Assembly (NCBI GenBank): GCA_965229245.1
Contig: CBDDIW010000001.1
Coordinates: forward strand, 650,372-714,371
Origin: Verrucomicrobiales bacterium
GTDB taxonomy: Bacteria > Verrucomicrobiota > Verrucomicrobiia > Verrucomicrobiales > V1-33
Length of the DNA: 64,000 bases
Direction of reading: 5' to 3'
Made by a program: the position numbers and the translations under genes. Below, piece by piece: positions 4,939 through 21,044 of the stretch. Each line of letters begins with the position of its first letter. Position 1 is the stretch's first letter. Under the pieces are notes generated by a model. It made no database searches, was not told where the DNA came from, and saw only the letters and a list, made by a program, of their open reading frames with translations.

Positions 4939-5018
4939 TAAATACTACGGGCCCGGCGGGGAATACTCGACATGGAATGAGCCAGGAGGGGAATCCTCCG
5001 AATGAGCCCGAAGGATGA

Positions 5019-5164: not shown

Positions 5165-5257
5165 CTAACGGTCGGGTTCAGGCCTGCTCTGCTTTCTATG
5201 GATGCGCGACCTTATAATACCCCTCCCGAGAGACAGGAAGCACGTCGCGTTTCTCCA

Positions 5258-5605
5258 TCACTCCAGCGGCAACTCGCCACCACTGAAATCGAAGCTCGTC
5301 CTCTTCTTCGGCCGCAGTGAATACCGCCCGCCCGCCGCGCGCCGCAGAGGCTCAAAAACCGACTCCGCCCCGGCCATGCGGATTTCACACACCACCTGGA
5401 GGAGCCGCCCGAGTTTCCCTTTGGGAAAGCCGTTGTGCTTGAACCAGATGACATACTCGTCCGGCAGATCGTAGAGCGGCACTCCCTTGGGCGGGTAATG
5501 CTGGGGGCCGTATTTCCCGAACGGCATGTGCCAGCGCCCGATCTCGGCGAGGGCCTCCCCGAGATTTGCCTGCCAGTCTGCCAGAAACGCCGCTTCGTCA
5601 TCCAT
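5258..5605 (-). CDS. conserved hypothetical protein, DUF3820-like
   Basis: 115 aa. The motif MPFGKYGPQHYPPKGVPLYDLPDEYVIWFKHNGFPKGKLGRLL resembles the DUF3820 family; the assignment is from memory only. Confidence 0.4.
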   Translation of the reverse strand: MDDEAAFLADWQANLGEALAEIGRWHMPFGKYGPQHYPPKGVPLYDLPDEYVIWFKHNGFPKGKLGRLLQVVCEIRMAGAESVFEPLRRAAGGRYSLRPKKRTSFDFSGGELPLE

Positions 5606-5666
5606 GGCGGGGATTTTGGCCCTTACAGGAACAAGGGAAAGCGAAAACCCCCACCCCCGGTTACCT

Positions 5667-5996
5667 TCAAGGCAGGCCCGGAAATTCCTCCGCCTTCATA
5701 TAGTCCCGGGCGGCCCGGCGTATTTGTACAATCCAGACAGTGCCATTGAGAACAATAAACAGTATCCGGAACTGGCCCCGTTTTTTCCCGAACAACGCCT
5801 GCCTCAGAGATTTTTCAAGGAGAGCTGCTTCGGGAGCAAAACCAAACCTTTCCGGATCATGCGCCACCGGGCCTTCGATCAATGCAAGAATCCCTTCGAC
5901 CCATTTGGCGGCAAAAATTTCGCTTTCCCCTGCAATCCAATCCGTAATCTCCCTTATCTGACGTGCCGCAATCCGGGTATAAACCAGTTTGCTCAC
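5667..5996 (-). CDS. type II toxin-antitoxin system toxin, ParE/RelE family
   Basis: 109 aa with a ParE-like hydrophobic pattern (YMKAEEF, RILFIVLNGTVWIVQIRRAARDY). The 4-bp overlap with the upstream antitoxin gene is the classic TA arrangement. Confidence 0.65.
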   Translation of the reverse strand: MSKLVYTRIAARQIREITDWIAGESEIFAAKWVEGILALIEGPVAHDPERFGFAPEAALLEKSLRQALFGKKRGQFRILFIVLNGTVWIVQIRRAARDYMKAEEFPGLP

Positions 5997-6295
5997 ATTT
6001 TCCGTCCCGGGATTGCTTTTTTCACACGCCCACGAAGCCCGGCATGAACAGATTCGGCATTCTCTCCCTCTCCCGCCTCCGCCTCCTCCAGACTTTTCCT
6101 GATCTCTGCCAGACTCTGCTGCCGGTCAAGAAGCGCGGCCATCTCTTCATACTGCTTCGCTCCAATGACCACACAACGGGCACGGCCATTCACGGTAAGT
6201 ACCGATGCCCTGCCTGTTTTGTTCACCCGGTCCACGGTGGCCCGCGCATTGCGCTGGAAATCAGAAAGTGATTGAATGTCCTCCAGATGAATCAT
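5993..6295 (-). CDS. type II antitoxin, Phd/YefM family
   Basis: 100 aa. N-terminal SLSDFQRNARATVDRVNKTGRASVLTVNGRARCVVIGAKQYEEM matches the Phd/YefM fold signature, with an acidic C-terminal tail. Confidence 0.65.
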   Translation of the reverse strand: MIHLEDIQSLSDFQRNARATVDRVNKTGRASVLTVNGRARCVVIGAKQYEEMAALLDRQQSLAEIRKSLEEAEAGEGENAESVHAGLRGRVKKAIPGRKM

Positions 6296-6314
6296 ACTCC
6301 TGCAGTTAATTTAC

Positions 6315-7283
6315 ATGAAATTTACTGCTCCTCCCGGTCCATGTCAACTCACGGTTAGCCCTGGCGGATTCCCCCGCCGCGGATTTCTCACCGGGCTCGC
6401 GACCGTGGCCGCGGGGCTCCGGTTCTCCCGGGCGGCGGCCCCGGCCATGGATCCCGCGGACTGGGTGTTCATCGATAACGGCGAGGTCCGCCTGGGCGTG
6501 AAGCAGTCCAGCGGCGCGGGCATCGGGTGGCTCTCGGCGTCCGGGGCCGGGGAAAATCTGCTGGATCACTTCGACCACGGGCGCTTCATCCAGCAGAGTT
6601 ACTACGGGCACACGGACGGTTCCGTGTGGGTGGACAAGCCATGGCGCTGGAATCCCGTGCAGGGCGGCGATTACAAAGGGAACGCTTCCCAGCTTCTGGA
6701 AATCACCAGCGACAAAACCACGCTCCACTCCCGCGTCCACCCGCGGAACTGGGCAGGAGGCCAATTGCTGACGGACTGCGAAATGGAACAGCACATCCGC
6801 CTGGAGGGCAAGGTGGCGATCGTGAAATTCCGGTTCCGTTATAACGGGAAAGGATCGCACCCGGAGATTCATCACGAGGTGCCCGCCACGTTCCTGAATC
6901 CCGCCCTGGGCACGCTGGTCATCTATGAAGGCGACAAGCCGTGGACGAACGGAGAGCTGAAGCGCTCCACACCCGGCTGGCCTAACGAAAGCCGCAGGAT
7001 CCCGGAATCCTGGGCCGCGTATGTGAATGACAAGGACACGGGGGTGGGCGTCTTCGTGCCCATCGCGAAGGAACTCACCTGTTACCGCTACGGAGCGAAC
7101 CCCAAAGCACCCGCCGCGTGCTCCTACTTCGCGCCCCTGGTGAAATTCGCCATCACGCCGGGGGTGGATTTCAGCTATGAAGCGGTGCTTGCGACCGGCA
7201 CGCCCGCGGAGATGCGTGCCACCTTCGCAAAGCTCAAGGATTCCCTCACCGGCAAGCTCCCGGAGACTCCCGCCGCGAAATAA
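6315..7283 (+). CDS. Tat-secreted hypothetical protein
   Basis: Twin-arginine signal (RRGFLTGLATVAAGL) followed by a soluble domain with no motif I recognise. Confidence 0.55.
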   Translation: MKFTAPPGPCQLTVSPGGFPRRGFLTGLATVAAGLRFSRAAAPAMDPADWVFIDNGEVRLGVKQSSGAGIGWLSASGAGENLLDHFDHGRFIQQSYYGHTDGSVWVDKPWRWNPVQGGDYKGNASQLLEITSDKTTLHSRVHPRNWAGGQLLTDCEMEQHIRLEGKVAIVKFRFRYNGKGSHPEIHHEVPATFLNPALGTLVIYEGDKPWTNGELKRSTPGWPNESRRIPESWAAYVNDKDTGVGVFVPIAKELTCYRYGANPKAPAACSYFAPLVKFAITPGVDFSYEAVLATGTPAEMRATFAKLKDSLTGKLPETPAAK

Positions 7284-7299
7284 CCCCGCCCCCCATGGC

Positions 7300-8016
7300 A
7301 TGACCGTCACGCTTTTCATTCCCTGTTTTATCGATGCCCTCTACCCCCAGGCGGGGATCAGTATGGTGACCATTCTCGAAGAGCTGGGGCATACCGTGGA
7401 TTTCCCCGGGGAACTGGCCTGCTGCGGGCAGCCGCCGTTCAATTCCGGCTACTGGGACGAAGCCCGGGAGGTCGCGCGCCCGGCACTGCGGCGGCTGGAA
7501 AAGGCGGAGGCCGTGGTGATCGGCAGCGGATCCTGCGGGGCGATGCTGAAGGTGTTTTACAAGGAACTCTTCGCCGGGCAGCCGGAGGAGGCCCAGGCAA
7601 AGGCGCTGTCCGCGAAGACCTGGGAGTTCTCGGATTTCCTCGTCACCCGTCTGGGCGTCACGGACTTGGGGGCCACCTTCGAGCGCCGGGTGACGTTCCA
7701 CGATGGCTGCCACGGCCTGCGGGAACTGAAGACGAAATCCCAGCCCCGCGCGTTGCTGAAGCACGTGCGCGGTCTGGAGCTCGTGGAGATGGCGGAGGCC
7801 GAGACCTGTTGCGGCTTCGGCGGCACCTTTGCCACGAAGTATGCCGGCATCTCCACCGCCATGGGCGAGGTGAAATGCGCCAGCGCCGCGGAGACGGGCG
7901 CGGATGTCATCGTGAGCAACGACTCCAGTTGCCTCATGCACCTCCAGGGCTTGCTGGACCGCCAGGGCCGCCCCATCCGGACAATGCACCTGGCGGAAGT
8001 GCTGGCCCAGCGATAA
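7300..8016 (+). CDS. lutA: lactate utilization protein A (LutA, CCG-domain Fe-S oxidoreductase)
   Basis: Two cysteine-rich CCG motifs (ACCGQPPFNSG and CCGFGGTFATKY). Start ATG 7300, internal to the listed 7177..8016 ORF. Followed by lutB and lutC. Confidence 0.8.
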   Translation: MTVTLFIPCFIDALYPQAGISMVTILEELGHTVDFPGELACCGQPPFNSGYWDEAREVARPALRRLEKAEAVVIGSGSCGAMLKVFYKELFAGQPEEAQAKALSAKTWEFSDFLVTRLGVTDLGATFERRVTFHDGCHGLRELKTKSQPRALLKHVRGLELVEMAEAETCCGFGGTFATKYAGISTAMGEVKCASAAETGADVIVSNDSSCLMHLQGLLDRQGRPIRTMHLAEVLAQR

Positions 8017-8025
8017 GCTCCCAGG

Positions 8026-8295
8026 ATGAAAACCCCGCCGGAAACAAACGCTTTCCCCGTCACTCCCGAAGAATGGCGCGCGCGTGCCGAAGCCATGCTG
8101 GAGCCGGAACAGTTTTACTGGTTGTTTCTTTCCATGGACGAACGGGCCGCCGCCATGGATGACGTCTTCCGGGACTATCAACTCATGGGCGGCTCGCTGG
8201 ATCCGGATCCCGATCCGCAGAGCCCCTTCTGGAGCCGGGAGGAACTGGAGGAGTTTGCCCGGAGTCATGGAACCACGATCCGGAATCCCTCATGA
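8026..8295 (+). CDS. small hypothetical protein (89 aa)
   Basis: ORF closely linked between lutA and the next gene, with a 4-bp overlap downstream. No recognisable motif. Confidence 0.35.
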   Translation: MKTPPETNAFPVTPEEWRARAEAMLEPEQFYWLFLSMDERAAAMDDVFRDYQLMGGSLDPDPDPQSPFWSREELEEFARSHGTTIRNPS

Positions 8296-9053
8296 TCGGT
8301 CTCCCTTCAACCATTCTCGCCGTCATCACCACTTTTGCGCACAGCGGCGTGCGCTGCCTGCTCATGGGCGGACAGGCCTGTTGGGTATACGGCTCCGGCC
8401 AGGCAAGCAAAGACGTGGACTTTGCCATCATGGCGGATAGCGGAAATTTGGAGCAATTGCGCGTGGTCCTCGCGGACCTGGCGGCCCAAAACATTGCCGT
8501 TCCCGCCCTGGATCAGCAATTTCTGGATGCCGGACTCGCCGTGCATTTTCGCTGCTCCCGAAAAGACGCCGCGGGTATCCGGGTGGATGTCATGTCGAAA
8601 ATGCGGGGCGTGGATTACTTCGACGCCCTGTGGGAGCGCCGGGCGGTCGCTATCGTGGGAGACGGAGTGGAACTCAACCTCCTTTCCTTGCGTGATCTTA
8701 TCCGTGCAAAGAAAACCCAGCGGGATAAAGACTGGCCTATGATCAGCACACTCGTTTCCGGGCATTACCTGAGAAACGGCCACGATCCCTCGCCCGCAAA
8801 TATCGCTCTTTGGCTGGAGGAGCTTCGTGATCCGGAACTGCTTCTGGAAGCAGTGACCCGCTACCCGGCCGAAGCCGCAAAGGTAGCCTCTTTGCGCGGA
8901 CCGGTGACTATCGCCCGCGACCCCTCCTCTTCCATGGATGACATCCGCCGGGCCATCCGGGACGAAGAGGACGCCGAACGCGCGGCGGACCGGGCCTATT
9001 GGGAACCATTGAAAAAACAACTCGCGGAACTCCGCCGGCAAAAGTATGACTGA
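8292..9053 (+). CDS. hypothetical protein, possibly a Pol-beta-type nucleotidyltransferase fold
   Basis: 253 aa. LMGGQACWVYGSGQASKDVDFAI resembles the hG[GS]...DxD nucleotidyltransferase motif, with a third acidic residue in RVDVM. Overlaps lutB start by 8 bp. Confidence 0.45.
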   Translation: MIGLPSTILAVITTFAHSGVRCLLMGGQACWVYGSGQASKDVDFAIMADSGNLEQLRVVLADLAAQNIAVPALDQQFLDAGLAVHFRCSRKDAAGIRVDVMSKMRGVDYFDALWERRAVAIVGDGVELNLLSLRDLIRAKKTQRDKDWPMISTLVSGHYLRNGHDPSPANIALWLEELRDPELLLEAVTRYPAEAAKVASLRGPVTIARDPSSSMDDIRRAIRDEEDAERAADRAYWEPLKKQLAELRRQKYD

Positions 9054-10479
9054 CACCAAACCCGCCCACCAGTTTCACACGGACGCGGACCAGGTCTCCG
9101 CGGACCTCATTCACCGGCGGCGCATCCAGGGAGCCATGGGGAAATACCTGGCCGCGCGCGGGCCGCGCCAGGCGGCTTTCCGCGACTGGCAGGAGGCCCG
9201 GCAGACGGCGGCGGAGACGAAGTGGGCCGCACTCAATGAGCTGGACAAACACCTTCTGGAGTTTGAAAAACAGGCCACCGCGCGCGGCACCCAAGTGCAC
9301 TGGTGCGGCACCGGGGAAAAGGCGCGGGAGGTCATCGTGGACATCATCCGGAGGCACAAAGCCCAGCGCATTGTGAAGTCCAAGGTGATGACCTCCGAGG
9401 AGATCCATCTCAACAAGCTCCTGGAAAAGCTGGGCTTCAGCGTGGTGGAAAGCGACCTCGGGGAATACATCCAGCAGCTCAAAGGCGAGCCTCCCTATCA
9501 CTTCGTCTTCCCCTGCATGCACCTCAGCCGGGAGGAGATCAGCGACCTCTTTGAAAACAAACTCGGCACCGCGCAAACGCACGATCCCGAGGAGCTCACC
9601 ATGATCGCCCGGAAGGTGCTGCGGCAGAAGTATCTGGAGGCGGATATCGGGTTCACCGGCGCGAATTTCATCGTGGCCGAGACCGGCATGATCTCCATCA
9701 CGGAAAACGAGGGGAACGCCCGGCTCTCCGCCGCCCTGCCGCGAGTGATGATCACCCTCGTGGGCATCGAGAAAATGGTGCCACGCCTCGCGGATCTGGC
9801 GCTCTTTCTCCCCATGCTGGCCACGGCGGGCACGGGGCAGCCGCTCACGTGTTATAATACAGTGTATGGCGGGCCCCGCCAGCCCGGCGAGGTGGACGGC
9901 CCGCTGGAGTGGCACGTCATCCTCCTGGATAACAACCGCACCACCCTCCTCGCGGACCCGGAGCAGCGGGACGCGCTGCACTGCATCCGCTGCGGGGCGT
10001 GTCTGAATGTGTGCCCGGTCTTCAAGAACATCGGCGGCCTGAGCTACGGCACCACTTACCAGGGGCCCATCGGCAGCGTCATCACGCCACACTTGCGCGG
10101 GCTCCAGGACTGGAAGCACCTGTCAGGAGCCTCCTCCCTCTGCGGCGCGTGCACGGAGACGTGCCCGGTGAAGATAGACCTGCATCACCACCTGCTCCAG
10201 AGCCGCCGGAACGCGGTGCGGCAAAAGCGCGGGCGCACGGAGGGCCTGATGTGGCGGGGATTCAGCTTCCTGATGAAGCGCCCGCAGCTTTACCGGGCCG
10301 GGCTGAAGGCGGGCCGGCTGTTCCAGCCGCTGCACGCACTCGTGAAGGGAGGCGCGCTTGATCCCGCGCGCGCATGGACGAAGTCCCGGGAGCTCCCGGA
10401 GGTCGCGCCGCGTTCGTTTCGCGACTGGTGGAGCCACCGCCCTCCCAAAACCCCATCCCCCCCCACCGGCCACTCATGA
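9046..10479 (+). CDS. lutB: lactate utilization protein B (LutB, LUD domain plus 4Fe-4S ferredoxin)
   Basis: 477 aa. 4Fe-4S motifs CIRCGACLNVCPV and CGACTETCPV, with an N-terminal DUF162/LUD region. Confidence 0.85.
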   Translation: MTDTKPAHQFHTDADQVSADLIHRRRIQGAMGKYLAARGPRQAAFRDWQEARQTAAETKWAALNELDKHLLEFEKQATARGTQVHWCGTGEKAREVIVDIIRRHKAQRIVKSKVMTSEEIHLNKLLEKLGFSVVESDLGEYIQQLKGEPPYHFVFPCMHLSREEISDLFENKLGTAQTHDPEELTMIARKVLRQKYLEADIGFTGANFIVAETGMISITENEGNARLSAALPRVMITLVGIEKMVPRLADLALFLPMLATAGTGQPLTCYNTVYGGPRQPGEVDGPLEWHVILLDNNRTTLLADPEQRDALHCIRCGACLNVCPVFKNIGGLSYGTTYQGPIGSVITPHLRGLQDWKHLSGASSLCGACTETCPVKIDLHHHLLQSRRNAVRQKRGRTEGLMWRGFSFLMKRPQLYRAGLKAGRLFQPLHALVKGGALDPARAWTKSRELPEVAPRSFRDWWSHRPPKTPSPPTGHS

Positions 10480-10904
10480 GCTTCCCCATCCGCAGCCCCC
10501 GCCACCAGACCGGCGGCATCTACGTCTTCGCCCGCATCCTGGATAAAATCCGCCTCAATGCCGAGGGCAGTCTCCCCGCGGGTTACCACGTGGGCATCAT
10601 TCCCGGAAACCGCACCTTCGATGACCGGGTGTGCAAGTTCCTCCACATCAACTTCGACACCCTGGTGCCCCGCGTGCTCCAGGGCGGCACGGACGAGGAA
10701 ATCCTGGAATGGTGCTTTGAGAGTGGCCGCCGTCCCTCGGAGGAGGAGGTGGAAATCTGGAACGGCTTCATGAGCAAACGCGGCTGGCGGGACTGGGCCC
10801 AGTCCGGCTTTGATAAATCCCGCGCGGATGCCGGTTTCGAGGACCGGGAGGACATCCAGTGCTATTTTGATCTCATGGATGCGGAGGAGGGGCGGGGCGC
10901 GTGA
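10476..10904 (+). CDS. conserved hypothetical protein inserted between lutB and lutC
   Basis: 142 aa (MSFPIRSPRHQTGGIYVFARILDKIRL...). ATGA overlap with the lutB stop and GTGA overlap with the lutC start, so it appears translationally coupled inside the lut operon. Confidence 0.5.
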   Translation: MSFPIRSPRHQTGGIYVFARILDKIRLNAEGSLPAGYHVGIIPGNRTFDDRVCKFLHINFDTLVPRVLQGGTDEEILEWCFESGRRPSEEEVEIWNGFMSKRGWRDWAQSGFDKSRADAGFEDREDIQCYFDLMDAEEGRGA

Positions 10905-11590
10905 GCGATCGCGAGGCCATCCTTTCCCGCATCCGGGCGGCGCTCACGGTCACCGCGCCGCGTCCCGGCGCGCACGATCACCAGCCGCTCTCCACCGCGC
11001 GGAAAGCCGCCGCCTCCGCGCGCGCCTGGCTGCCCGCCGCCGGGGAGACTCCGGATGAATGGCTGGCCCTCTTCGCGAAGAACTCCGCGGACCTGAAGAC
11101 CACCTTCCTCGCCGTGCCGGACGAAGCCGCCGCCCACGCCGCCCTGCGGGATCTCGCGGCGGCGGAGGGCTGGAGATTCGTGGCCACGCACCGGGGCACG
11201 CTGGCCGCGCCCGCCGCCGTCTCCGCGGGCCCGGCCGTCATGACCGTCACGGAGGGCTACGATGTCCAGGAGCTGGAACGCTGCGACGCGGGCATCTCTG
11301 AATGCGAGGCCCTCATCGCGCAGACCGGCTCCGTGCTGCTCACTGCCCGGGATGGCGGCGGGCGCGCGCTTTCCGTGCTGCCCCCGCACCACGTGGTCAT
11401 CGCCCGGCGCGGACAGCTCCTCCCGGATCTCCCCGCCGCCTATGCCCTGCTGCACGAGAAATACGGCTCGACGGGCTGGCCCGGCATGATGACCCTCATC
11501 ACCGGCCCCAGCCGCACGGCGGACATTGAGCGCATCCTCGTTCTTGGAGCCCACGGGCCGAAGAAGCTGACGGTGATCCTGTTTCCCTGA
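10901..11590 (+). CDS. lutC: lactate utilization protein C (LutC, LUD domain)
   Basis: 229 aa with a GTG start. LUD/DUF162-like protein in the expected position after lutB. Confidence 0.75.
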   Translation: MSDREAILSRIRAALTVTAPRPGAHDHQPLSTARKAAASARAWLPAAGETPDEWLALFAKNSADLKTTFLAVPDEAAAHAALRDLAAAEGWRFVATHRGTLAAPAAVSAGPAVMTVTEGYDVQELERCDAGISECEALIAQTGSVLLTARDGGGRALSVLPPHHVVIARRGQLLPDLPAAYALLHEKYGSTGWPGMMTLITGPSRTADIERILVLGAHGPKKLTVILFP

Positions 11591-12742: not shown

Positions 12743-12855
12743 GATAAGTAATGGATCGCACGGCTGCCGCGGCGGCGAAAGCCGAAAGAACAGAGCAGTT
12801 TCTGTTTCCGGCTCCCGTCGGAAAGCGAGACAGGAAAAAGGAAAAGACCGGAGGA

Positions 12856-13845
12856 TTACCCGACGGTCACGCGCACGCCTTGGGTGGTGCCGATGACCCC
12901 CAGTTCCCGCGCGCCGGAGCCGGCGGCGAGGGCTTTCTCTTTATCCGCGGCCGGAACGATGACCACCCAGCCCCAGCCCATGTTGAACGTATGGAGCTGG
13001 CTCTCCGGATCACAGTGGCGGAGCACCTTCGGGATGGCTCCCAGAGTCCATTCCGGGATGGAAATGTCCGCGCCTTTTTCACCCAGGAAGCGCTCCAGAT
13101 TCTCCGGCAGCCCGCCTCCGGTGATGTGGGCCATGGCCTTGATATCACAGCCCGCGGCGCGCAGGGCGGCCACTTCCTCATGATACAGGGCGGTGGGGGC
13201 CAGCATTTCCCGGATCTCCTCGCGGGTGAAGTCCTCCGGATGCTCGCGCAGCACGCGGCGCACAAGGCTCCAGCCGTTGGCATGGAATCCGGCGGAGGGA
13301 TAGCCCACCAGCACGTCCCCGGGCTCCACGCGCTCCGGGTTGATGAGGTCCTTCTTTTCCACCGCGCCGATAGCGAAACCGCTGAGTTCGATGAGACCGT
13401 CCGGCACGATGCCCGGCATCTCCGCCGTCTCACCCCCGGCCAGGATGCAATCGCACGCGCTCAGCCAGTCCGTCATGCCGGCGATGAGGCGGGTGATCTG
13501 CGTTTTGTCGATGCGCCCGATACCGATGTAATCCAGGAACATAATGGGGTCCCCGCCCGTGGTGAGGACATCATTCACACTCATGGCCACCAGGTCCTTG
13601 CCCGCGGTCTCCAGTTCATCGTGCTCCAGCAGGAGCTCCAGCTTCGTGCCCACGCCATCGCAGCCGGTCACGATCACCGGCTCCTTATAGTCGCTCAGAT
13701 CATAGGCGGCGGCAAAGAGGCCGAAGGCACCGAAAAGCTTGCGTTTCGTCTCGGTGCGGCGGCGGAGTTCACCGAAGACATCCCCCACGAGGGCGGCGGC
13801 GGCTTTGGTATCGACTCCGGCTTCTTTGTAGGTGAGCTTGGCCAT
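12856..13845 (-). CDS. purM: phosphoribosylformylglycinamidine cyclo-ligase (AIR synthase)
   Basis: 329 aa. MAKLTYKEAGVDTKAAAAL N-terminus and the AIRS domain signature. Confidence 0.9.
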   Translation of the reverse strand: MAKLTYKEAGVDTKAAAALVGDVFGELRRRTETKRKLFGAFGLFAAAYDLSDYKEPVIVTGCDGVGTKLELLLEHDELETAGKDLVAMSVNDVLTTGGDPIMFLDYIGIGRIDKTQITRLIAGMTDWLSACDCILAGGETAEMPGIVPDGLIELSGFAIGAVEKKDLINPERVEPGDVLVGYPSAGFHANGWSLVRRVLREHPEDFTREEIREMLAPTALYHEEVAALRAAGCDIKAMAHITGGGLPENLERFLGEKGADISIPEWTLGAIPKVLRHCDPESQLHTFNMGWGWVVIVPAADKEKALAAGSGARELGVIGTTQGVRVTVG

Positions 13846-13905
13846 GCGGGAAAAAAGGTGCGGCTGGGAGGCAGGGGGGTGTTGTTGGGAGGAGAGGGGA
13901 AAAGA

Positions 13906-14643
13906 TCAGGCGAGGAGCTTGCTCTGGCCGCTGAGTTCGCGCCAGATGGAGCGGAAGAAATAATAGCCGTAGCCGTGCTCGCCATCGCCCTTCCAGTCCT
14001 GATCGTAGTGATGCGAACGGAAAAGAAAGCGCTCCGGGTGCGGCATGAGGCCAAAAACCCGGCCTGTCTCGTCCTGGAGGCCGGCGATGCGCTGGCTGGA
14101 GCCGTTCACATCGTCCTCGTATTGCAACGTCACGAGACCCTTCGCGAAGTATTCCTCCACCTTCCCCTCCGGAGCCACGAAGCGGCCCTCGGCGTGGGCG
14201 ATGGGGAGTTCCCACTCCTCCGGCAGTTCCGCCAGGAAGGGATTGTCCCGCTGCACGCTTTTCAGCTTCACCCACCGGCACTGGAAGCGCCCGCTGGCGT
14301 TGTCGATGAGGGAGCCCGTGGGCAGCACGCCGATCTTGCTGAGAATCTGGAAGCCGTTGCAGATCCCGAGCACATAGCCGCCGCCCGAGATGAAGTGCTC
14401 CAGGGACTGCCCCAGCCGCCGCTCCGTGACCAACTGGGCGATGCGCCCGGCCATGACGTAGTCCCCGTAGGAAAAGCCGCCGCTCATCACCACCAGTTGC
14501 GCCGCCTTCAGATGATCCGGCGTGACGAGGGAAATGGGCACGATGTTCGTGCCAAACCCGGCGGTCTTCAACGCACGGGAAGTCTCCGCATCACAGTTGG
14601 TCCCGGGGAATTTGATGAGCAAAGCTGAAGGCTGGGAGTTCAT
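13906..14643 (-). CDS. purQ: phosphoribosylformylglycinamidine synthase subunit PurQ (glutaminase)
   Basis: LLIKFPGTNCD N-terminus, catalytic GICNGFQ and HPER motifs. Start trimmed to ATG 14643 (the listed ORF extends to 14799). Confidence 0.85.
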   Translation of the reverse strand: MNSQPSALLIKFPGTNCDAETSRALKTAGFGTNIVPISLVTPDHLKAAQLVVMSGGFSYGDYVMAGRIAQLVTERRLGQSLEHFISGGGYVLGICNGFQILSKIGVLPTGSLIDNASGRFQCRWVKLKSVQRDNPFLAELPEEWELPIAHAEGRFVAPEGKVEEYFAKGLVTLQYEDDVNGSSQRIAGLQDETGRVFGLMPHPERFLFRSHHYDQDWKGDGEHGYGYYFFRSIWRELSGQSKLLA

Positions 14644-15015
14644 GAGGAACACCATTACAGGGGCGGGGGCAGGGCGAATGCAAGGGGAAGGTGACCAGGA
14701 GAAAAGCAGGCCCGGTCCGGGGAGCCGGTTGTTGACCGCTCCGTTCAGAGTCAGCTCAGCCCCCGCCGTCACGCCGGTCCACCGGGGCGATGAGCCCATA
14801 CCCGGAAATGGAGTTCCAAAGGCCCGAGCCGGATATAGCCAGAAACGGAGTCTTCTAGTTTCACTTACGGAGCCAGAGAGGGAAGTGTATAATTCCTCAT
14901 GATTTCAATAAACAGCTATGCCCCCGTGTTCACGGAAACCTTTCTTAATTATTTCCCTGGCATTTGATGGTCTCAAATTTAAATAAATTTGAAATAACAG
15001 AAGAAGCAGAATCAA

Positions 15016-15948
15016 ATGGCCCATATCACCTTCATTCATGGCATCTCCAATAAACCGGCGGCGGACCGGTTGTTGCGCATCTGGCTGGATTCCCTTACCG
15101 GGGGGACCGGCGGAATCGATCTGGACGCGGAAGGCGTCACCACTTCCATGATTTATTGGGCGGATGTTCTTTATCCGGAACCGGTCGCCGCGGAAGCCGA
15201 GTTCGTAAATGAAGCGAACACCGCGGAACTGCCCTCCGCCACCGATCCGAATATGAAATGGCGAGAGCATCTTTCCGGGGAGGAAAAAGCCATCACCGAC
15301 GCCCTGGCTGCCAAATTGAGCTTCGATGTGCTTACCGAGGACACCTATGTGCCACCGGTGACCGCGATGGATGCCCAGCTTGAACGAATTCCCCTCCCCT
15401 GGTTTGTAAAACGCCGGGTCATGAAGGAATTCCTTCGTGATGTCCATCACTACCTCTTTAACGAAACCTCCTCACCCCGGCCCGGAGTTTCCTATAAGGT
15501 AAGAGATGAAATCAGAAGTCGAACCATCGCCGCCCTCCAGGCAGGCTCCTCGAAACCGGGCCCGCACCTTCTCGTAAGCCACAGCATGGGGACAGTCATC
15601 GCCTACGATTGTCTCAAGCGGGTTCCGGAATGCCCGGCGGTGGATGGCCTGATGACTGTCGGAAGTCCTCTCGGGATTGATGAAATCCAGGACAAACTCA
15701 AGCCTGAATGGTCTCGCGCCAACGGCTTTCCCTCAAAAGTAAAAGGGGGATGGATCAATATTTATGACAGCCTCGACCCGGTCACGGGTTTTGACGGAAA
15801 CATTGCCAATGACTTCAAGAAAGACGGCCGTGAGGAAGTGGAGGTAATCAATGAACAGAACTACGGCGCCTGGCGGCATGATATCGTCAAGTACCTGGCG
15901 GGCACAAAGCTCCGGGCAAGCCTGGGACGTTTGCTTTCCGGCCTCTAA
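15016..15948 (+). CDS. alpha/beta-hydrolase fold protein, lipase/esterase-like (gene A of candidate three-gene system)
   Basis: 310 aa. ITFIHGI oxyanion-hole-like motif and LVSHSMGT nucleophile elbow (GxSxG). Candidate acid (IYDSLDP) and His (AWRHD) residues. GC is markedly lower than the flanks. Confidence 0.7.
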   Translation: MAHITFIHGISNKPAADRLLRIWLDSLTGGTGGIDLDAEGVTTSMIYWADVLYPEPVAAEAEFVNEANTAELPSATDPNMKWREHLSGEEKAITDALAAKLSFDVLTEDTYVPPVTAMDAQLERIPLPWFVKRRVMKEFLRDVHHYLFNETSSPRPGVSYKVRDEIRSRTIAALQAGSSKPGPHLLVSHSMGTVIAYDCLKRVPECPAVDGLMTVGSPLGIDEIQDKLKPEWSRANGFPSKVKGGWINIYDSLDPVTGFDGNIANDFKKDGREEVEVINEQNYGAWRHDIVKYLAGTKLRASLGRLLSGL

Positions 15949-15962
15949 CCCCCCCTCGACCC

Positions 15963-17612
15963 ATGGCGTGGAATTCGATTACCTTCAATCAGGAGCTGTC
16001 CTCTGCCGCCGGCACTTTTAATTTGGCCGCCGTCTCAGAGTTGTGCGGACAGTTAATCAAACACCTTAACGAAACAGGAGATCCTTATCCTTCAGATGAT
16101 GCCTCGGCGGCAATGTCAATCCTGCGCCGGAAAAGGTATTTCAGTCTCATGATGAAAGTAGGCGCGGCTTTTATGATGACGGGCCGCGCCTCCCTGAAAG
16201 TAATTCGTTTGTTTGCTCAGGCGCAGATCGATGACGGGGATGTCGCCGCCGGGTTGATCACTCTACATGATCTGGCCGCCAAGGCGGAGCTACTCGGGCA
16301 TCAAGGCGAATTGAACGAAGCCCGGGGCTTGATCGGCCGGGCGCATAAGCAGTATTATGTAACCACCGAAGGAAACGCCCCTCACCGGCTGGAACACTTG
16401 AAAAAGTCTCTGAAAGCCTATTTGGAGGTTTATAGCACGTTGCCGGAGAAATGCCTGTGGCACGGGATCAACAGCGTGGCTCTGCTCAGGCGGGCTGAGC
16501 GCGAATCCGTGGACTGTCCTGTTTTCGTGGATCCCGAAACCATCGCGAAACAGATTTTTTCCGTGATTTCCCACTTGAGAGAACCGGTGGAAGTGTGGGA
16601 TTGCGCCACCGCCATGGAAGCCAGCCTGGCTTTGGGGGATCTGAAAAATGCGGGGGCCTGGCTTGAACGGTATGTGGCTCATCCTGACGGGGACGCGTTT
16701 GAACTTGCCAGCACTCTGCGTCAGTTGGAAGAGGTCTGGCAACTGGACTCCGCGCAGGGAGCCGGGCAGTTACTGTTACCGGTTCTCCGGGCTCACCTTC
16801 TCGCGAAGGAGGGTGGAGCGGTGGATATGTCTCTTTCCGAAATGAGGAAATCCGCCGCGGTCTCCCCGCCCCAGGCGTCTGACTTTGAAAAGGTCTTTGG
16901 AACTGACTCCTATAAGGCGCTTGAATGGTTTCGCAAAGGATTGCGGCGGGCCAGGCTTGTGGGCCGCATCGGCAGAACCTCCACCGAGGGACACGGCACG
17001 GGTTTTGTCCTTCTGGGGAAGACGCTCTCTCCAGTGTGGGGCGAAAGTTCAATCCTTCTTACCAACAGCCATGTGGTTTCCGATAATCCGGAGATCTGCA
17101 AACAGGGGGCGCTCCACCCCTCGGAGGTAGTCGTCACCTTTGAGGCCCTTGGAAACGGGGAGGAATATACGGTGGACCTGCTTTGGACCTCCCCTCCCGA
17201 CAAACTGGACGCCACGGTTCTGCTCCTTAAGGATACCTCGAAGCTCGCCCCCCTTTTGACGGATGATCACGCGAAAATAGCGACCGGCCTGCCGCTACTC
17301 AATGATTACGCCCGTGTATATATTATCGGGCATCCCCAGGGAGGAGGCTTGAGTTATTCCCTCCAGGACAATCTGCTGCTGGATCACGAAGATCCTCTGC
17401 TCCACTACCGGGCACCCACGGACCACGGGAGTTCAGGCAGTCCGGTATTCAACGCCAACTGGGATTTCATCGGGCTCCACCATAAGGGCAGCGAGACCAT
17501 GCGGAGATTAAATAAAAAACCGGGCACCTACCCGGCGAACGAAGCCATCTGGCTTCAGGCTGTCATTTCTGAATTGAAAACCCATCCGCCGGCACCCCCG
17601 GCCTCCACTTGA
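15963..17612 (+). CDS. trypsin-like (chymotrypsin-fold) serine peptidase with an about 330-aa N-terminal alpha-helical (TPR-like) domain (gene B)
   Basis: 549 aa. The C-terminal about 200 aa carry His (LLTNSHVV), Asp (DKLDATVLLL) and Ser (DHGSSGSPVF) in canonical order and spacing. The N-terminal region is predicted helical with no recognised motif. Starts 14 bp after gene A. Confidence 0.75.
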   Translation: MAWNSITFNQELSSAAGTFNLAAVSELCGQLIKHLNETGDPYPSDDASAAMSILRRKRYFSLMMKVGAAFMMTGRASLKVIRLFAQAQIDDGDVAAGLITLHDLAAKAELLGHQGELNEARGLIGRAHKQYYVTTEGNAPHRLEHLKKSLKAYLEVYSTLPEKCLWHGINSVALLRRAERESVDCPVFVDPETIAKQIFSVISHLREPVEVWDCATAMEASLALGDLKNAGAWLERYVAHPDGDAFELASTLRQLEEVWQLDSAQGAGQLLLPVLRAHLLAKEGGAVDMSLSEMRKSAAVSPPQASDFEKVFGTDSYKALEWFRKGLRRARLVGRIGRTSTEGHGTGFVLLGKTLSPVWGESSILLTNSHVVSDNPEICKQGALHPSEVVVTFEALGNGEEYTVDLLWTSPPDKLDATVLLLKDTSKLAPLLTDDHAKIATGLPLLNDYARVYIIGHPQGGGLSYSLQDNLLLDHEDPLLHYRAPTDHGSSGSPVFNANWDFIGLHHKGSETMRRLNKKPGTYPANEAIWLQAVISELKTHPPAPPAST

Positions 17613-17618
17613 TTTCCT

Positions 17619-18998
17619 ATGCAACCTCTTGAGATCGCACCGGCCCCTCCCGCTACTCCGGCTCCCGTTAATGTCACTTATCCGCTGAAGATCTTTCTCA
17701 GCCACAAACTGGGCCCATCCAAAGCGAAAGCGGAGCGGATCGCCGCGGCTCTGTCGCTTTTTGCCGGGGATAAACTCAGGATCACTTGCTCAGCCACGTT
17801 TGCCAAGGGCATTGACTGGGAGGAGACTATAAAGAGGGAATTGAAAGCCGCCCATTGGTTTATTCTGATCTATGACGGACCTGACGTGAACCACGACTGG
17901 TGCCTTTTTGAGGCGGGCTTTTTCCTTGCCAACGATCCCGGCAGGAAATTGATCTGCCTTCATGATCCAAGACACAGTCTGCCTCCTCCTTTGAGACAAT
18001 TTGTGGACGTGCCCGCCCGTGCCGAAGAGGTCATGAGCCTGTTCCAGGAAATTTATTTCAATCCTCCATGGGCGATCAAACCGGAACTGCTGCTGGCAAA
18101 TGGCCCTCTTCCCGATTATGTCAACCGCATCGTAAAGGAGATCAATGGCCAGGATATTCTTTCTCAATTCACCCTCTCCCCCACCTTTACTTTCCAAATA
18201 AGGAACGAAAACATTTCCCTGCTGAGTGAAGGCATTATCGACGACAACGCCGAGATCAGTGGAGACGGTGCCTGGGAAGCCATATTTGGAAAACCGGATG
18301 CCACCATCTCGTGGACATGGAAAGGCATCACCGACGGATTAGATGACTGGCAGGCATGGGCATACCAGCTCGCGGGCATGATGGCCGAGGCGATCACCAC
18401 AATATCCGTGAACAACCCCTCGACAGCATTGCGCGTACGCCTTAAAAACGGACAGGAATCTATTTACAGAGTCCTGATCCGGCGCATGGAGAGAACAACG
18501 GAAGCATACCGGTTCACCTTCGGAGCCGCTGAGATTGTGACCTCATACCGTCCGGGGGACGCGGCAAGCCGGACGAAAATATTTCATCTTTATAACCTCG
18601 CATGGTTTTTCAAAGAAAATTTCCTGAAGACTCATCTCGCCGCGCTTGAAGAGCAGGTTCTCATGAAGGCTCTTCCTCCGGACTTTCTCCCCAAAAGGAT
18701 CAAAAATATCCGGGATGACCTTAAAGCCCTGCACGCTGAAGCCCAGGTTCGGGGCATAGAAGACAATGCCCGGGTGGTCAATGCTTTCCGACCGGAGTTG
18801 AGGGCTCCGGTGGCAGCCGCGTTGCAGGAAACCTGGCCCTTGCTCGACCAGGCTTTGCAGGAGGCCTGCTCCGCGGCAAAGCCGTCGCTGACCGCCCTGA
18901 TCAAGGCACTGAGGGAGATGAAGCCCATCAACACTTTTTTTCTGAAGAGTTGCCTTGAAGAATTGCAGGTTCTCGAAGAACTCCCTGGCGCGGGGTGA
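17619..18998 (+). CDS. TIR-domain protein with an about 280-aa C-terminal domain of unknown function (gene C)
   Basis: 459 aa. Residues about 20-180 have the KIFLSHK beta-A motif and a W-C-L-F-E-A-G motif matching the conserved (S)xWCxxE of TIR domains, which contains the catalytic Glu. Starts 6 bp after gene B. Confidence 0.7.
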   Translation: MQPLEIAPAPPATPAPVNVTYPLKIFLSHKLGPSKAKAERIAAALSLFAGDKLRITCSATFAKGIDWEETIKRELKAAHWFILIYDGPDVNHDWCLFEAGFFLANDPGRKLICLHDPRHSLPPPLRQFVDVPARAEEVMSLFQEIYFNPPWAIKPELLLANGPLPDYVNRIVKEINGQDILSQFTLSPTFTFQIRNENISLLSEGIIDDNAEISGDGAWEAIFGKPDATISWTWKGITDGLDDWQAWAYQLAGMMAEAITTISVNNPSTALRVRLKNGQESIYRVLIRRMERTTEAYRFTFGAAEIVTSYRPGDAASRTKIFHLYNLAWFFKENFLKTHLAALEEQVLMKALPPDFLPKRIKNIRDDLKALHAEAQVRGIEDNARVVNAFRPELRAPVAAALQETWPLLDQALQEACSAAKPSLTALIKALREMKPINTFFLKSCLEELQVLEELPGAG

Positions 18999-19067
18999 CT
19001 GGAGGTAGAGAGAAGGCTCCTTTCGCGGCCTCAGCGCGGCTTTGCTTTCCGCCGGGTTTCCTTTAAG

Positions 19068-20507
19068 GTGGGCGCTCTTCCCCTCCCCTCTACCGTGAAC
19101 CGATTTGCCACCCGCGGCTCCGCCACTCCCCCCGTGTTTGTCTTCGCGGGAATCGTGGGACTAAGCATTGTCTTTTTCCTCCTCTTCTCCGCCAAAAACC
19201 TGTTCCGGAAAGACCCGCCGCCGGATTCCGGGACCGCGCCGGTCACCGCCTCCACCACGACCACCCCGCCGGAGAAGGAAACCGCCGGGAAGCCGGGGGA
19301 CGGCACCGCGGGGAAAGCCGCCGGAAAGCCGGAGACCAGCCCGCCTGGAGAGGATCCCGCCGGGAAGCCACATGCCGCCTACTTCACTACCGCGGAGGCC
19401 GTGCTGAAGGATCTCACCAGCCGCCTCCGGAGCGGACGCACGGAGGACCTGACAAAAACCGCGGGCGGCGGACCGCGGGTGGATTTCCTGCATCAACTGC
19501 TCACCAAAGCGGGCTGGACGCTTCCGGAGGGGGAACCGTGGTCGGATGAGGGCGCCATGACCGGCGTGAACCGCTATGGCTTGAAACTGGAGCCCTCCTC
19601 CCCCGCCGTGCCCCTGCCTGCCGGTCCCGTCATGGCGGACGTGGAGCGCACCAAAACCGAGGGCTGGAAGCTGCGCGGGCTGCGCTTCGATCCCGCCCTG
19701 GTGGATCAGGCGGTGCTGCTGCTGAAGGACGCGGGCATCACCGTGGAGCCCGCCCCGCTGCGGGACGCGGCGGACCCGCTGGACCTCGCACACCGGTTTT
19801 TCGATGGCGTGCTGGGCCACGATTTCAAATCCGCCCGGAGTCTCACGGACCACGCGAAGGTCACCCACGAACGGCTGGCCGGCATGTGCATCGTCTTTGA
19901 GGAGGGGGAATACTACATCGCCGCGAAACGACCTATCGTCATCACCGCCGGCACGGCGGACAAGGCGTGGGCCATCGTGAAGATCCGCTCGGACAAGCAG
20001 AATCTGGACGCGGAGGTGGGTCTGGAGATGGACCGGAACGCAGCCGGCGCGTGGGTCATCCAGGCACTGGATTTTACCAACATGCTGGAGAGCTATGTGA
20101 AGGCCACGAATACCGGGAACGTCTTCTATTCCCCCGTGGTGAAGTCCGCGAAGGGCGGCGAGAGCATCGTGCTTTACTTCGAGTTCGACAAATCCGCGCT
20201 CCATCCCCGCGCGCTGCGGCAACTGGACATCATCGCCAGCCTGCTGAAGAGCGACCCCGCCCGGAAGATGCGCATCACCGGCCACAGCGACGCCCTGGGG
20301 CGGGACTCCTACAATGTGAAGCTCTCCACCGCCCGCGCGAAAAATGTGCGTACGCGCCTGCTTGAACTCGGCGTCTCGGCCACCCAGATTGACACCCAGG
20401 GAGTGGGCTCCATCGCCCCTCTCGATCCCGACCGGCGGGAGGACGGCTCCGATAACCCGGATGGCCGCTCCCGGAACCGCCGCACGGAAATCTACCTCGA
20501 CTTCTAA
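19068..20507 (+). CDS. OmpA-family (OmpA/MotB C-terminal peptidoglycan-binding domain) protein with TM anchor and Pro/Thr/Gly-rich linker
   Basis: 479 aa, GTG start. N-terminal TM helix, low-complexity PPPDSGTAPVTASTTTTPPEKETAGKPG linker, C-terminal OmpA-like domain ending NRRTEIYLDF. Confidence 0.7.
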   Translation: MGALPLPSTVNRFATRGSATPPVFVFAGIVGLSIVFFLLFSAKNLFRKDPPPDSGTAPVTASTTTTPPEKETAGKPGDGTAGKAAGKPETSPPGEDPAGKPHAAYFTTAEAVLKDLTSRLRSGRTEDLTKTAGGGPRVDFLHQLLTKAGWTLPEGEPWSDEGAMTGVNRYGLKLEPSSPAVPLPAGPVMADVERTKTEGWKLRGLRFDPALVDQAVLLLKDAGITVEPAPLRDAADPLDLAHRFFDGVLGHDFKSARSLTDHAKVTHERLAGMCIVFEEGEYYIAAKRPIVITAGTADKAWAIVKIRSDKQNLDAEVGLEMDRNAAGAWVIQALDFTNMLESYVKATNTGNVFYSPVVKSAKGGESIVLYFEFDKSALHPRALRQLDIIASLLKSDPARKMRITGHSDALGRDSYNVKLSTARAKNVRTRLLELGVSATQIDTQGVGSIAPLDPDRREDGSDNPDGRSRNRRTEIYLDF

Positions 20508-20516: not shown

Positions 20517-21044
20517 ATGTTCCTTCGTTTTGTCCCCGTTATCGCCTGCGCGGTCGCATTCTCCGGCTGCAAACGCCACACGGTCATAGATCCCGCCGAT
20601 CTGCAAACCCCCGCAGCGGAAGCCGCGCTGCGCTACGTCATCGACCACAGCCCCCGGAGGAAAGACGCAAAGCTGGCAATTATCTGCATCGGGGATGCTC
20701 CTATGAGTCCTGCCACCGAAGAATTTGAGGCACGGTTCAAAGACATTCCCGGTCTGGAGTTTATCAACTTTCTGAGGATGGAACATGGCATGTATAATGG
20801 AAAACCCCGACGCTGGGACTTCCAGACAAAGAAATTCGTGCTGGAGGTTCAGATCAGTGCCCTCACGCCTTTTAAGGACGGACGGGCGGAGGCCATCGCG
20901 GCATGGGCGTATGAGGATGACGCGGAGCGCTACCGGCTGAGGATTCTGGAAAAAGCGGGCGGCGGCTATGACGTGAAAGAACTGGAGACCATTCCTGTTT
21001 CCAATCGCAACGACGACCGGAGCAGTGTCACGAAGGGCAAGTGA
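20517..21044 (+). CDS. hypothetical lipoprotein
   Basis: Signal peptide with lipobox AFSGC, 175 aa. Confidence 0.5.
   Translation: MFLRFVPVIACAVAFSGCKRHTVIDPADLQTPAAEAALRYVIDHSPRRKDAKLAIICIGDAPMSPATEEFEARFKDIPGLEFINFLRMEHGMYNGKPRRWDFQTKKFVLEVQISALTPFKDGRAEAIAAWAYEDDAERYRLRILEKAGGGYDVKELETIPVSNRNDDRSSVTKGK

Follow-up and report, generated by a model that had tools for sequence, protein, structure and literature searches.

In a Verrucomicrobiales chromosome, three genes, here called A, B and C, are flanked by purQ on the left and an OmpA-like gene on the right, within the 64-kb stretch of DNA that was analysed (the window). They form one tight operon, a reading that follows from the short intergenic gaps, 14 nt between A and B and 6 nt between B and C, together with the uniform composition over the three genes. 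The features, in order along the window, are these:

13906..14643, - strand: purQ (FGAM synthase I), host gene of the left flank, outside the island (NCBIfam TIGR01737, 190.6 bits, cut-off 177.8; GC3 0.846)
14800..15015, + strand: AT-rich leader (GC 0.41) belonging to the acquired operon, with TGTATAAT at 14886-14893
15016..15948, + strand: gene A, a 310-aa alpha/beta-hydrolase (esterase/lipase/thioesterase-like)
15963..17612, + strand: gene B, 549 aa, TPR-S joined to a trypsin-fold serine protease
17619..18998, + strand: gene C, 459 aa, TIR, PAS-like domain and helical bundle
18999..19094, + strand: spacer at the 3' end of the operon; 19023-19039 is a weak hairpin resembling a terminator
19095..20507, + strand: OmpA-family lipoprotein-like gene, host gene of the right flank, outside the island (Pfam OmpA, 66 bits; GC3 0.829)

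The purQ gene shares 90% identity with its counterparts in Verrucomicrobiales MAGs, and the start of the OmpA-like gene at 19095 agrees with its record in the protein collection. In the leader, a consensus scan of the + strand found no complete sigma-70 promoter, and there was no match to an Rfam family.

An earlier note, made by reading the sequence by eye, had described this interval as an AT-rich island of about 53% GC in a chromosome of about 67%. The direction of this contrast was right and its size overstated, the computed values being 0.550 for 14644-19067 and 0.646 for the remaining window. Among all 4,424-bp windows the lowest GC (0.548) belongs to the one starting at 14801, and windows outside the block have a mean of 0.647, with a standard deviation of 0.018 and a minimum of 0.612, placing the block more than 5 sd below them. 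The three genes are, as had been stated, more AT-rich than the flanking genes, with GC3 values of 0.640 (A), 0.642 (B) and 0.615 (C) compared to 0.846 for purQ, 0.809 for rlmN, 0.829 for the OmpA-like gene and 0.860 for a mutY-like gene; composition is uniform across A, B and C. The strongest tetranucleotide outlier of the window is 15001-19000, where the distance to the rest peaks at 0.36, against typical values of 0.12-0.20.

The borders can be drawn more closely than before. The 372-bp region upstream of gene A had been taken as AT-rich, and this holds for 14800-15015 (GC 0.41) but not for 14644-14799, which is host-like (0.60-0.64); the two strings quoted from the region are indeed present, at 14834-14845 and 14976-15007. 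In related Verrucomicrobiales MAGs, the region upstream of purQ is homologous as far as ~14,690-14,725 and no further, and GC is back at the host level past ~19,100. Given the restricted AT-richness and the homologous, host-like segment to its left, the foreign-looking block is therefore placed at ~14,800 to ~19,040, about 4.2 kb. Scans for tRNA genes (none in the whole 64-kb window), for flanking direct repeats (none convincing, only chance-like 14-23-mers) and for an integrase or recombinase gene adjoining the block (none) gave the same outcome as inspection by eye had done.

The data support horizontal acquisition of the block, inserted between purQ and the OmpA-like gene, and in addition to the compositional contrast several observations bear out the suggestion that the event was recent. 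At 90% identity, the products of A, B and C are each a singleton in a set of ~15 billion proteins, and their nearest relatives, 50-70% identical, are found on unrelated contigs with different flanks. In 22 other A-B loci the two genes have a GC that follows the surrounding DNA (range 0.42-0.72), whereas here it is 0.56 against flanks of 0.64, with the closest homolog loci at 0.57-0.59; the pair is also carried by conjugative plasmids of Rhizobiaceae (Agrobacterium, Rhizobium and Sinorhizobium). Four related contigs with a purQ ~90% identical to the one here (L169-L171 and a fourth contig) have purQ and a purM-like gene in synteny and lack A, B and C; because these four also lack the OmpA-like right flank, what they display is absence at a rearranged site and not a true empty site. 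In the nearest species representatives, purQ is 52-63% identical and synteny is absent.

Gene B joins an N-terminal TPR-S (DUF4071-like) sensor domain (Pfam, 32.3 bits, cut-off 27.6) to a C-terminal protease (Trypsin_2, 68.4 bits) in which the catalytic residues H370, D416 and S491 are invariant. The protease matches the profile of the SplB/V8/exfoliative-toxin S1B proteases, which suggests that it cuts selectively and not indiscriminately. A sequence search found no solved TPR-S structure; by analogy, we infer that this domain is a putative receptor of a TIR-made signal. Gene A has a generic alpha/beta-hydrolase fold with an HG oxyanion motif, an intact Ser-Asp-His set that includes invariant S190 (HSMG) and H288, and several invariant Asp residues. 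Its residues ~55-120 make up a variable, partly disordered insertion of low pLDDT, in which E90 is nevertheless invariant and E68 nearly so. In gene C, a TIR domain (residues ~23-176, motifs FLSHK and DWCLFEAG) with a conserved E98 in a WCxxE-type motif is followed by a PAS-like domain (~189-305) and a helical bundle (~312-454). Its TIR_2 score lies below the Pfam cut-off; with its catalytic glutamate, C is a TIR-domain protein of the kind by which Thoeris is recognised. As judged from these residues, all three enzymes look catalytically competent. No PADLOC v2 model, those for ThsB included, matches A, B or C.

A and B constitute a widespread, co-evolving two-gene module, the conserved core of the operon. 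Each family has ~2,000 members (more than 1,855 homologs of B) distributed sporadically over many phyla, and of the 59 metagenomic loci whose upstream sequence reaches 1 kb or more, 29 have A immediately before B, an arrangement also seen in L001, L002, L003 and L167. The pairwise identities of A and of B are correlated (r = 0.83), a value reached in 0 of 999 Mantel permutations. The A superfamily pairs with two unrelated protease classes. On the plasmid sequence pTiAF3.44 the equivalent position is taken by a Peptidase_C14 (caspase) protein and, after it, a 290-aa homolog of A, a distant match over its full length (hhalign probability 98.2%, 29% identity over 273 columns).

TIR genes are enriched beside B homologs. 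Among 150 neighbours of B homologs the commonest family is TIR_2 (16), followed by Metallophos (9), TIR (5) and TPR-S (4), with RyR, LSDAT/SLOG, ThsB_TIR and patatin also present, and the PADLOC ThsB models match many of these neighbours. The 0.64 Mb surrounding B homologs contains 26 TIR ORFs and the 1.33 Mb of control loci a single one, an enrichment of ~50-fold; counted by locus, TIR is present at 17 of 77 B-homolog loci and 1 of 80 control loci. The order A-B followed by a same-strand TIR gene recurs with unrelated TIR architectures, namely patatin-TIR (L103), ThsB_TIR (L104) and TIR (L132). After removal of redundancy, 35 loci contain A, and just 10 of them have a TIR gene within the DNA retrieved; TIR input is therefore optional or encoded elsewhere, and we propose that gene C is an exchangeable input module on the A-B core. 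Related loci also have AbiE, patatin-type phospholipase effector, caspase and SLATT genes as neighbours. Such company, together with the TIR/TPR-S/protease content and the TIR/ThsB enrichment, supports the idea in the earlier note that the block is accessory defence cargo.

Our preferred reading, to which we assign a probability of roughly one half, is that of an acquired three-gene conflict operon of anti-phage type, Thoeris-like, in which a TIR protein would act through a protease on a hydrolase. Let us assume that the PAS-like/helical part of C senses infection. Its TIR domain would then convert NAD+ to an ADP-ribose-derived signal, and binding of this signal by the TPR-S domain of B, as presumed for cADPR and the TPR of ThsI, might release the protease activity; direct sensing by TPR-S would be an alternative trigger. 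B would next cut the variable insertion of A and turn a dormant pro-hydrolase into an active esterase or lipase, which might damage the cell or block the phage with an abortive-infection outcome, both steps being modelled on the known pairs of pro-nuclease and protease. The protease-to-hydrolase step is suggested because of the gene order and fusion logic, the insertion in A, the V8/Spl type of the protease and the caspase-paired A homolog. More tentatively still, A may represent a new class of protease-gated executioner pro-enzymes, wired via TPR-S to TIR-derived nucleotide signals, a proposal that we hold with clearly less than even confidence. If it is true, A, as a pro-lipase or pro-esterase, would parallel the pro-nucleases that were described recently, and the cascade from TIR signal to protease to hydrolase would have three tiers, new for Thoeris-type systems.

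It is possible, though we consider it rather unlikely, that two independent systems share the islet, with an autonomous A-B pair whose TPR-S directly detects a phage protein or some other cue, and with C as a separate single-gene defence protein, a TIR NADase effector fused to a PAS/helical sensor, which depletes NAD+ and sends no signal to B. Such an arrangement would account for the lack of a nearby TIR gene at most A-B loci (for instance L003 and L167) and for the distribution of the C family, which is absent from beside A-B at the other 83 B loci and has homologs in other contexts. A large patatin gene is found near each of the three mapped C homologs: in two loci it immediately precedes the homolog, and at the remaining locus it lies ~6 kb off on the opposite strand. 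One of these loci also has ThsB and caspase genes, another a SLATT gene. The C-terminal module of C is always joined to TIR, including TIR of the CAP12/Pycsar effector type, and the best Foldseek matches of C include the TIR-APAZ of SPARTA, in which TIR is an NADase effector; as far as the module is concerned, a self-contained sensor-NADase and a signal generator would fit equally. On the other hand, the 6-nt gap between B and C and the shared composition of the three genes tie C to its neighbours, the TPR-S family shows a specific association with TIR genes and has a presumed cADPR receptor in type VIII Thoeris, and A-B-TIR recurs with several TIR families.

The hydrolase step could also be misassigned within a TIR-dependent operon. 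A would then be no protease substrate but a receptor or adaptor for the TIR product, catalytic or not, or would act enzymatically on the signal to degrade or remodel it, and B would itself execute by cleaving cellular proteins. The lipase-like proteins of the plant EDS1 family have such a receptor or adaptor role, A is better conserved than B (mean pairwise identity 57% versus 45%), which is unusual for a terminal toxin, the protease of type IV Thoeris is an indiscriminate executioner, and a calcineurin-like phosphoesterase, in keeping with signal modulation, is often adjacent to B homologs that lack A (11 loci). However, the invariant nucleophile elbow and His of A argue for an enzyme and not a pure adaptor, the V8/Spl type of B argues for specific cutting, and the pairing of the A superfamily also with a caspase fits a relation of substrate or partner; we regard this arrangement as improbable. 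Least probable of all, in our view, is an acquired metabolic or proteolytic set, a lipid or ester hydrolase with its maturation protease, whose low GC would be irrelevant to defence. The generic fold of A and the lack of any match to the curated defence models would suit it, but the sporadic cross-phylum distribution, the plasmid carriage, the ~50-fold enrichment of TIR genes and the ThsB, TPR-S, AbiE, caspase, SLATT and patatin-type effector neighbours would not, and no signal peptide is evident by eye at the N-termini.

Returning to the Thoeris-like reading, we compare the operon with known systems. According to the preprint of Yirmiya et al. (2025, bioRxiv 10.64898/2025.12.03.692087), type VIII Thoeris consists of a ThsB TIR and ThsI, a CMP-hydrolase with a TPR presumed to perceive the signal cADPR, while type IV combines a ThsB TIR with an indiscriminate caspase-like protease, ThsE, and signals by N7-cADPR; the same source credits Aravind and colleagues with predicting a role for the TPR scaffold in bacterial TIR-mediated signalling, and the word 'trypsin' does not occur in the searched part of its tables. 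The operon here joins a TIR gene to a TPR-scaffold effector as type VIII does and has a protease output as type IV does, and ThsB-type TIR is enriched beside B homologs. It differs in that the protease has a trypsin fold (V8/Spl-like) and is neither a caspase nor a CMP hydrolase, in its obligatory-looking third partner, the alpha/beta-hydrolase A, in the distinct TIR-PAS-helical family of C, without a PADLOC ThsB match, and in that most A-B loci have no TIR. By analogy, the operon may be a Thoeris relative whose protease switches on a dormant hydrolase.

Systems centred on TPR-S were reportedly predicted by Burroughs and Aravind in J Bacteriol in 2020. TPR-S (PF20308) is associated with TIR, calcineurin-like, patatin, SLOG/LSDAT and caspase genes, as it is around B homologs. 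The core of the BcTir/Tpr systems, the subject of a preprint, is said to be a nucleosidase/NADase-type N-terminal domain fused to TPR, whereas in the present operon TPR-S is joined to a serine protease that has hydrolase A as its partner. That preprint presents the calcineurin-like phosphoesterase type of domain as a presumed signal-modulating enzyme (BcTir/Tpr, bioRxiv 10.1101/2023.05.26.542521). The plant pathway from TIR to EDS1/PAD4/SAG101 offers a further likeness, an alpha/beta-hydrolase-fold protein genetically coupled to a TIR enzyme.

Lastly, in Hachiman (HamMAB), Avs, Lamassu and DRT systems an MBL pro-nuclease is accompanied by a trypsin-like protease that removes its gating insertions, which carry conserved cleavage sites, and caspase-nuclease 'canu' pairs were described alongside them (Tuck et al., Science 2025, PMC12799240). 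[quoted passage not shown] Unlike these enzymes, A is an alpha/beta-hydrolase and not an MBL-fold nuclease, and it is therefore an analogue and not a member of the pro-nuclease family; the protease is fused to TPR-S here and to HamA, Avs or LmuA there, and activation of A by its protease partner is putative.

The low-GC block between purQ and the OmpA-like gene is best read, in our estimation with a probability of about 0.85, as a conflict-type operon that was acquired and is built around a hydrolase and a protease that co-evolve. Its three genes, here called A, B and C, all lie on the forward strand, with intergenic gaps of 14 and 6 nt, in the following arrangement.

13906..14643 (-), purQ
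15016..15948 (+), gene A, 310 aa, alpha/beta-hydrolase
15963..17612 (+), gene B, 549 aa, N-terminal TPR-S domain and C-terminal Trypsin_2 protease domain
17619..18998 (+), gene C, 459 aa, TIR domain followed by PAS-like and helical segments
19095..20507 (+), OmpA-like gene

An earlier note had described 14644-19067 as a compositional island of about 53% GC against about 67% in its surroundings. The drop is real by GC, GC3 and tetranucleotide deviation, all computed in the window, although the size of the contrast was slightly exaggerated: GC of this interval is 55.0%, compared to 64.6% in the remaining 59.6 kb of the window. Profiles at 1-kb and 200-bp resolution show a plateau of 0.50-0.60 from ~14,800 to 19,050, with an abrupt rise to 0.64-0.73 on either side. 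When all 4,424-bp windows were compared, the one with the lowest GC started at 14801, and those outside the block had a mean GC of 0.647 (sd 0.018) and a minimum of 0.612. GC3 of A, B and C is 0.62-0.64, compared to 0.81-0.86 in the purQ, rlmN, OmpA-like and mutY-like genes, and tetranucleotide usage departs furthest from that of the remaining sequence at the island (distance 0.36 vs 0.12-0.20 elsewhere). Both AT-rich strings quoted in the note are present in the sequence. The AT-rich leader itself, however, is limited to 14800-15015 (GC 0.41); composition is host-like over the initial 150 bp of the interval (14644-14799), which up to ~14,690-14,725 is homologous to DNA upstream of purQ in related genomes. 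The scans agree with the note that no integrase, tRNA or clean repeat marks the borders: there is no tRNA in the whole window, no convincing flanking direct repeat at the island borders and no recombinase gene adjoining the block. Border and promoter/terminator scans gave no insertion signature and no convincing forward-strand promoter, and the Rfam scan found no RNA family.

A few other features of the window should be mentioned here. A forward-strand ORF at 12751-14628 (625 aa, no family match) was rejected as a gene: it is a shadow ORF, antisense to purQ and the purM-like (AIRS) gene. Directly 3' of the OmpA-like gene, a 175-aa ORF at 20517-21044 (+; GC 0.568, GC3 0.67) has no Pfam or NCBIfam match and is a singleton when clustered at 90% identity; it may represent one more foreign or orphan gene near the island. 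A second low-GC patch, separated from the island by ~14 kb, holds a 218-aa ORF at 33261-33917 (-; gene GC 0.55, GC3 0.60) with an IS200-like Y1 transposase domain (Y1_Tnp, E 1.1e-8), which is another small foreign element. Low GC (0.55-0.57) is also seen at 5015-6271, where three small ORFs (101, 173 and 102 aa) have no Pfam match, and the second-largest tetranucleotide outlier of the window is a single 3,284-aa TPR-rich ORF at 47603-57457 (+), in its most GC-rich part.

The earlier reading of the block as horizontally acquired defence cargo gains support from several directions besides composition. A, B and C are each a singleton at 90% identity in a collection of 15 billion proteins, and their best relatives (68-70% identity for A, 55% for B and ~50% for C) reside on unrelated metagenomic contigs with other neighbours; an exact-match query with B from the window gave no indexed contig. 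Elsewhere, in 22 loci where both A and B are complete, GC of the pair tracks that of the surrounding DNA over 0.42-0.72, and the window is the only locus of those compared in which the pair falls 8 points under its flanks, while the three closest homolog loci have a GC of 0.57-0.59, approximately the island's value. The named carriers of A-B are mostly Bacteroidota (Pedobacter, Mucilaginibacter, Hymenobacter, Chitinophagaceae), Acidobacteriota and Deltaproteobacteria, and tblastn located the pair on plasmids of Agrobacterium, Rhizobium and Sinorhizobium, some of them conjugative; a search of IMG/VR viral contigs gave no A homolog. The host is a Verrucomicrobiales bacterium, its purQ sharing 90% identity with purQ of Verrucomicrobiales MAGs and 52-63% with that of species representatives from Akkermansiaceae/Verrucomicrobiales, and among the representative genomes reached with the purQ query none is syntenic with a window flank. 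The empty-site comparison proposed in the note is not decisive, for lack of synteny. In four contigs from the 90% purQ cluster (three with DNA, L169-L171, and a fourth without), A, B and C are absent beside purQ, but so is the OmpA-like gene; collinearity with the window is confined to purQ and the purM-like gene, and upstream of purQ lies an M50-like peptidase or a different gene. The three-gene cluster is thus not conserved there, although with its right flank rearranged this is not a clean empty site. As a feature of the host genome, the block is a clear, well-supported, small and recently acquired islet of defence type, without recognisable mobility genes.

Gene A has no match in Pfam, NCBIfam or PDB sequences by single-sequence or profile search; ~2,011 proteins of its family, 56-70% identical over the full length, were detected. 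An HG motif ending strand 1, the nucleophile elbow H189-S190-M191-G192, several Asp residues and H288 are invariant. At residues ~55-120 lies an insertion that is variable and partly disordered. Within it E90 is invariant and E68 nearly so, and after it comes the strongly conserved motif ERIPLPWF-KRR...DVHHYLFN. In B, Pfam recognizes TPR-S (PF20308; 32.3 bits, cut-off 27.6) and Trypsin_2 (68.4 bits), and many B homologs also match DUF4071/MAP3K_TRAF_bd. The protease residues H370, D416 and S491 are invariant among homologs, and the protease profile matches S1B proteases, namely the sequence-specific staphylococcal SplA-F, V8 and exfoliative toxin. The TIR_2 score of C is below threshold (24.5 vs 28 bits), with the motifs FLSHK and DWCLFEAG present and the glutamate conserved; C has no PDB sequence match by single sequence or profile. 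When 1.84 billion representatives were scanned in full with HMMER, 128 C-family clusters reached E<=1e-30, and among the matches listed most cover nearly the whole profile. Relatives with a different N-terminus still carry a TIR domain of another subfamily, including the CAP12/Pycsar effector type. The PAS-like and helical module was seen on TIR_2, CAP12/Pycsar-type and tandem TIRs (proteins P0268, P0269, P0313 and P0398 of this search), and its presence on several TIR subfamilies makes it look like a TIR-dedicated accessory module. NCBIfam has nothing for A, B or C; PADLOC gave only marginal matches to the protease or TIR parts, and its version 2 lacks models for all three.

The pair A-B is a conserved unit, to which TIR proteins are recurrent but exchangeable companions. 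Among the metagenomic B loci, 59 extend at least 1 kb upstream, and in 29 of these A lies directly upstream of B on the same strand, as it also does in loci L001, L002, L003 and the plasmid locus L167. Pairwise identities of A and B correlate across 23 loci (r = 0.83; Mantel, 0/999 permutations), A being the more conserved (mean identity 57% vs 45%). At the closest A-B locus, L001/L002 (upstream region L001 7998-9000, L002 170-475), a 101-aa pYEATS (prokaryotic YEATS) protein lies directly upstream of A, and in L001 AbiEi/AbiEii follow 1.3 kb downstream of B. Further upstream in L001 is a 230-aa protein without Pfam or PADLOC match that recurs in L143/L145, L002 being too short to tell. In 11 loci, including L136, L139, L143, L148, L149, L151, L158 and L165, B homologs without A are adjoined by a calcineurin-like phosphoesterase (~423 aa, same strand), which suggests alternative partners for the TPR-S protease.

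Among 150 immediate neighbours of B homologs, TIR is the commonest Pfam family (TIR_2 16, TIR 5, ThsB_TIR 2), followed by calcineurin-like phosphoesterase (9), TPR-S (4), RyR (3), LSDAT/SLOG (2) and patatin (2), and PADLOC models for ThsB match many of these neighbours, with matches also to AbiEii, phospholipase effector and SAVED-TIR models. With a TIR profile, the DNA around B homologs (0.64 Mb) gave 26 ORFs and that of control loci (1.33 Mb) gave 1, and 17 of 77 non-redundant B loci were positive; this profile was trained on the same neighbourhoods, of which the Pfam counts are independent. Arrangements like that of the window recur with different TIR proteins, as listed below.

A-B loci with TIR proteins other than C
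L103: A-B-[patatin-TIR]
L132: A-B-[TIR, 388 aa]
L104: [TIR]-A-B-[ThsB_TIR]-[TIR]
L105: TIR-TPR-S fusion and phospholipase effector gene just upstream of A-B

The principal rival to the proposed cascade of all three proteins would have A-B act autonomously, with TPR-S sensing something else and C travelling along as a self-contained sensor-NADase. The optional nature of TIR in A-B loci speaks for it, a TIR being found within the retrieved DNA in 10 of 35 A-containing loci and a C-family protein being absent from all 83 other B loci. So does the occurrence of the C family in other contexts: C homologs lie near large patatin proteins in L084, L085 and L086, in the first of which (4987-11222) the C-family TIR sits between a 657-aa patatin and a ThsB_TIR and Peptidase_C14 pair resembling type IV Thoeris, and a SLATT protein adjoins one other C homolog. 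The finding of C's C-terminal module on effector-type TIR also fits. These large patatins were searched for a TPR-S domain with Pfam and hhalign, and it is absent. We consider such an autonomous pair less probable than the cascade.

The reading favoured here, a cascade linking all three genes, would, if real, broaden two lines of current work on bacterial immunity, namely TIR/NAD+-derived signalling and the activation of pro-enzymes by proteases. To these it would contribute an alpha/beta-hydrolase as effector chemistry and a fusion of receptor and protease, both of them new. It would also provide a function for A and B, both large families without annotation that have ~2,000 matches each, in many phyla and on rhizobial plasmids; for A there is no Pfam model. 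The pair is compact (~2.6 kb) and present in culturable Agrobacterium, Sinorhizobium, Pedobacter and Hymenobacter, making the hypothesis directly testable. The searchable literature yielded no description of an alpha/beta-hydrolase/TPR-S-trypsin pair, and the portion of the Thoeris survey tables that was searched mentions no trypsin effector. Both TPR-S as a Pfam family and its TIR link reportedly originate with Burroughs and Aravind in 2020, whose work may already list TPR-S-peptidase fusions.

In such a cascade, the TIR domain of C would produce an NAD+-derived signal, TPR-S would bind this ligand, the protease of B would then cleave and activate A as a pro-hydrolase, and active A would perhaps act on a cellular target to cause abortive infection. 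The domains, the intact catalytic residues, the operon layout, the co-evolution, the TIR association and the pairing with two protease classes are directly seen; on the full chain from C to abortive infection we would place even odds. We propose it because it follows the same grammar as two precedents, with different parts. Thoeris systems combine a signal-making TIR with very diverse effectors, among them a protease in type IV and, in type VIII, which uses cADPR, the effector ThsI, whose TPR domain is presumed by the authors to perceive cADPR, with a role in TIR signalling predicted by Aravind and colleagues (Yirmiya et al., bioRxiv 10.64898/2025.12.03.692087). The other precedent is a pro-nuclease activated by a protease cutting its disordered gating insertions, the same nuclease family having caspases as alternative partners (Tuck et al., PMC12799240). 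Like these pairs, A has a disordered insertion and lies just upstream of a sensor-fused trypsin-fold protease of a specific type, and its superfamily is also paired with a caspase, the enzyme being a hydrolase instead of a nuclease. On the Ti plasmid pTiAF3.44 of Agrobacterium larrymoorei (L168 3142-5870), a caspase-family gene is followed, with a 4-nt overlap, by a distant full-length A homolog (hhalign probability 98.2%), in a slot adjoining a ParB-N gene equivalent to that of A-B on A. fabrum pAtl-11c (L167 6001-8523); the two plasmids differ by a protease-class swap around one hydrolase family. The sensor domain of B was sought in the caspase partner and is not shared. We would not class the system as categorically new, but as a Thoeris-like or TPR-S conflict system combined with the protease/pro-enzyme theme.
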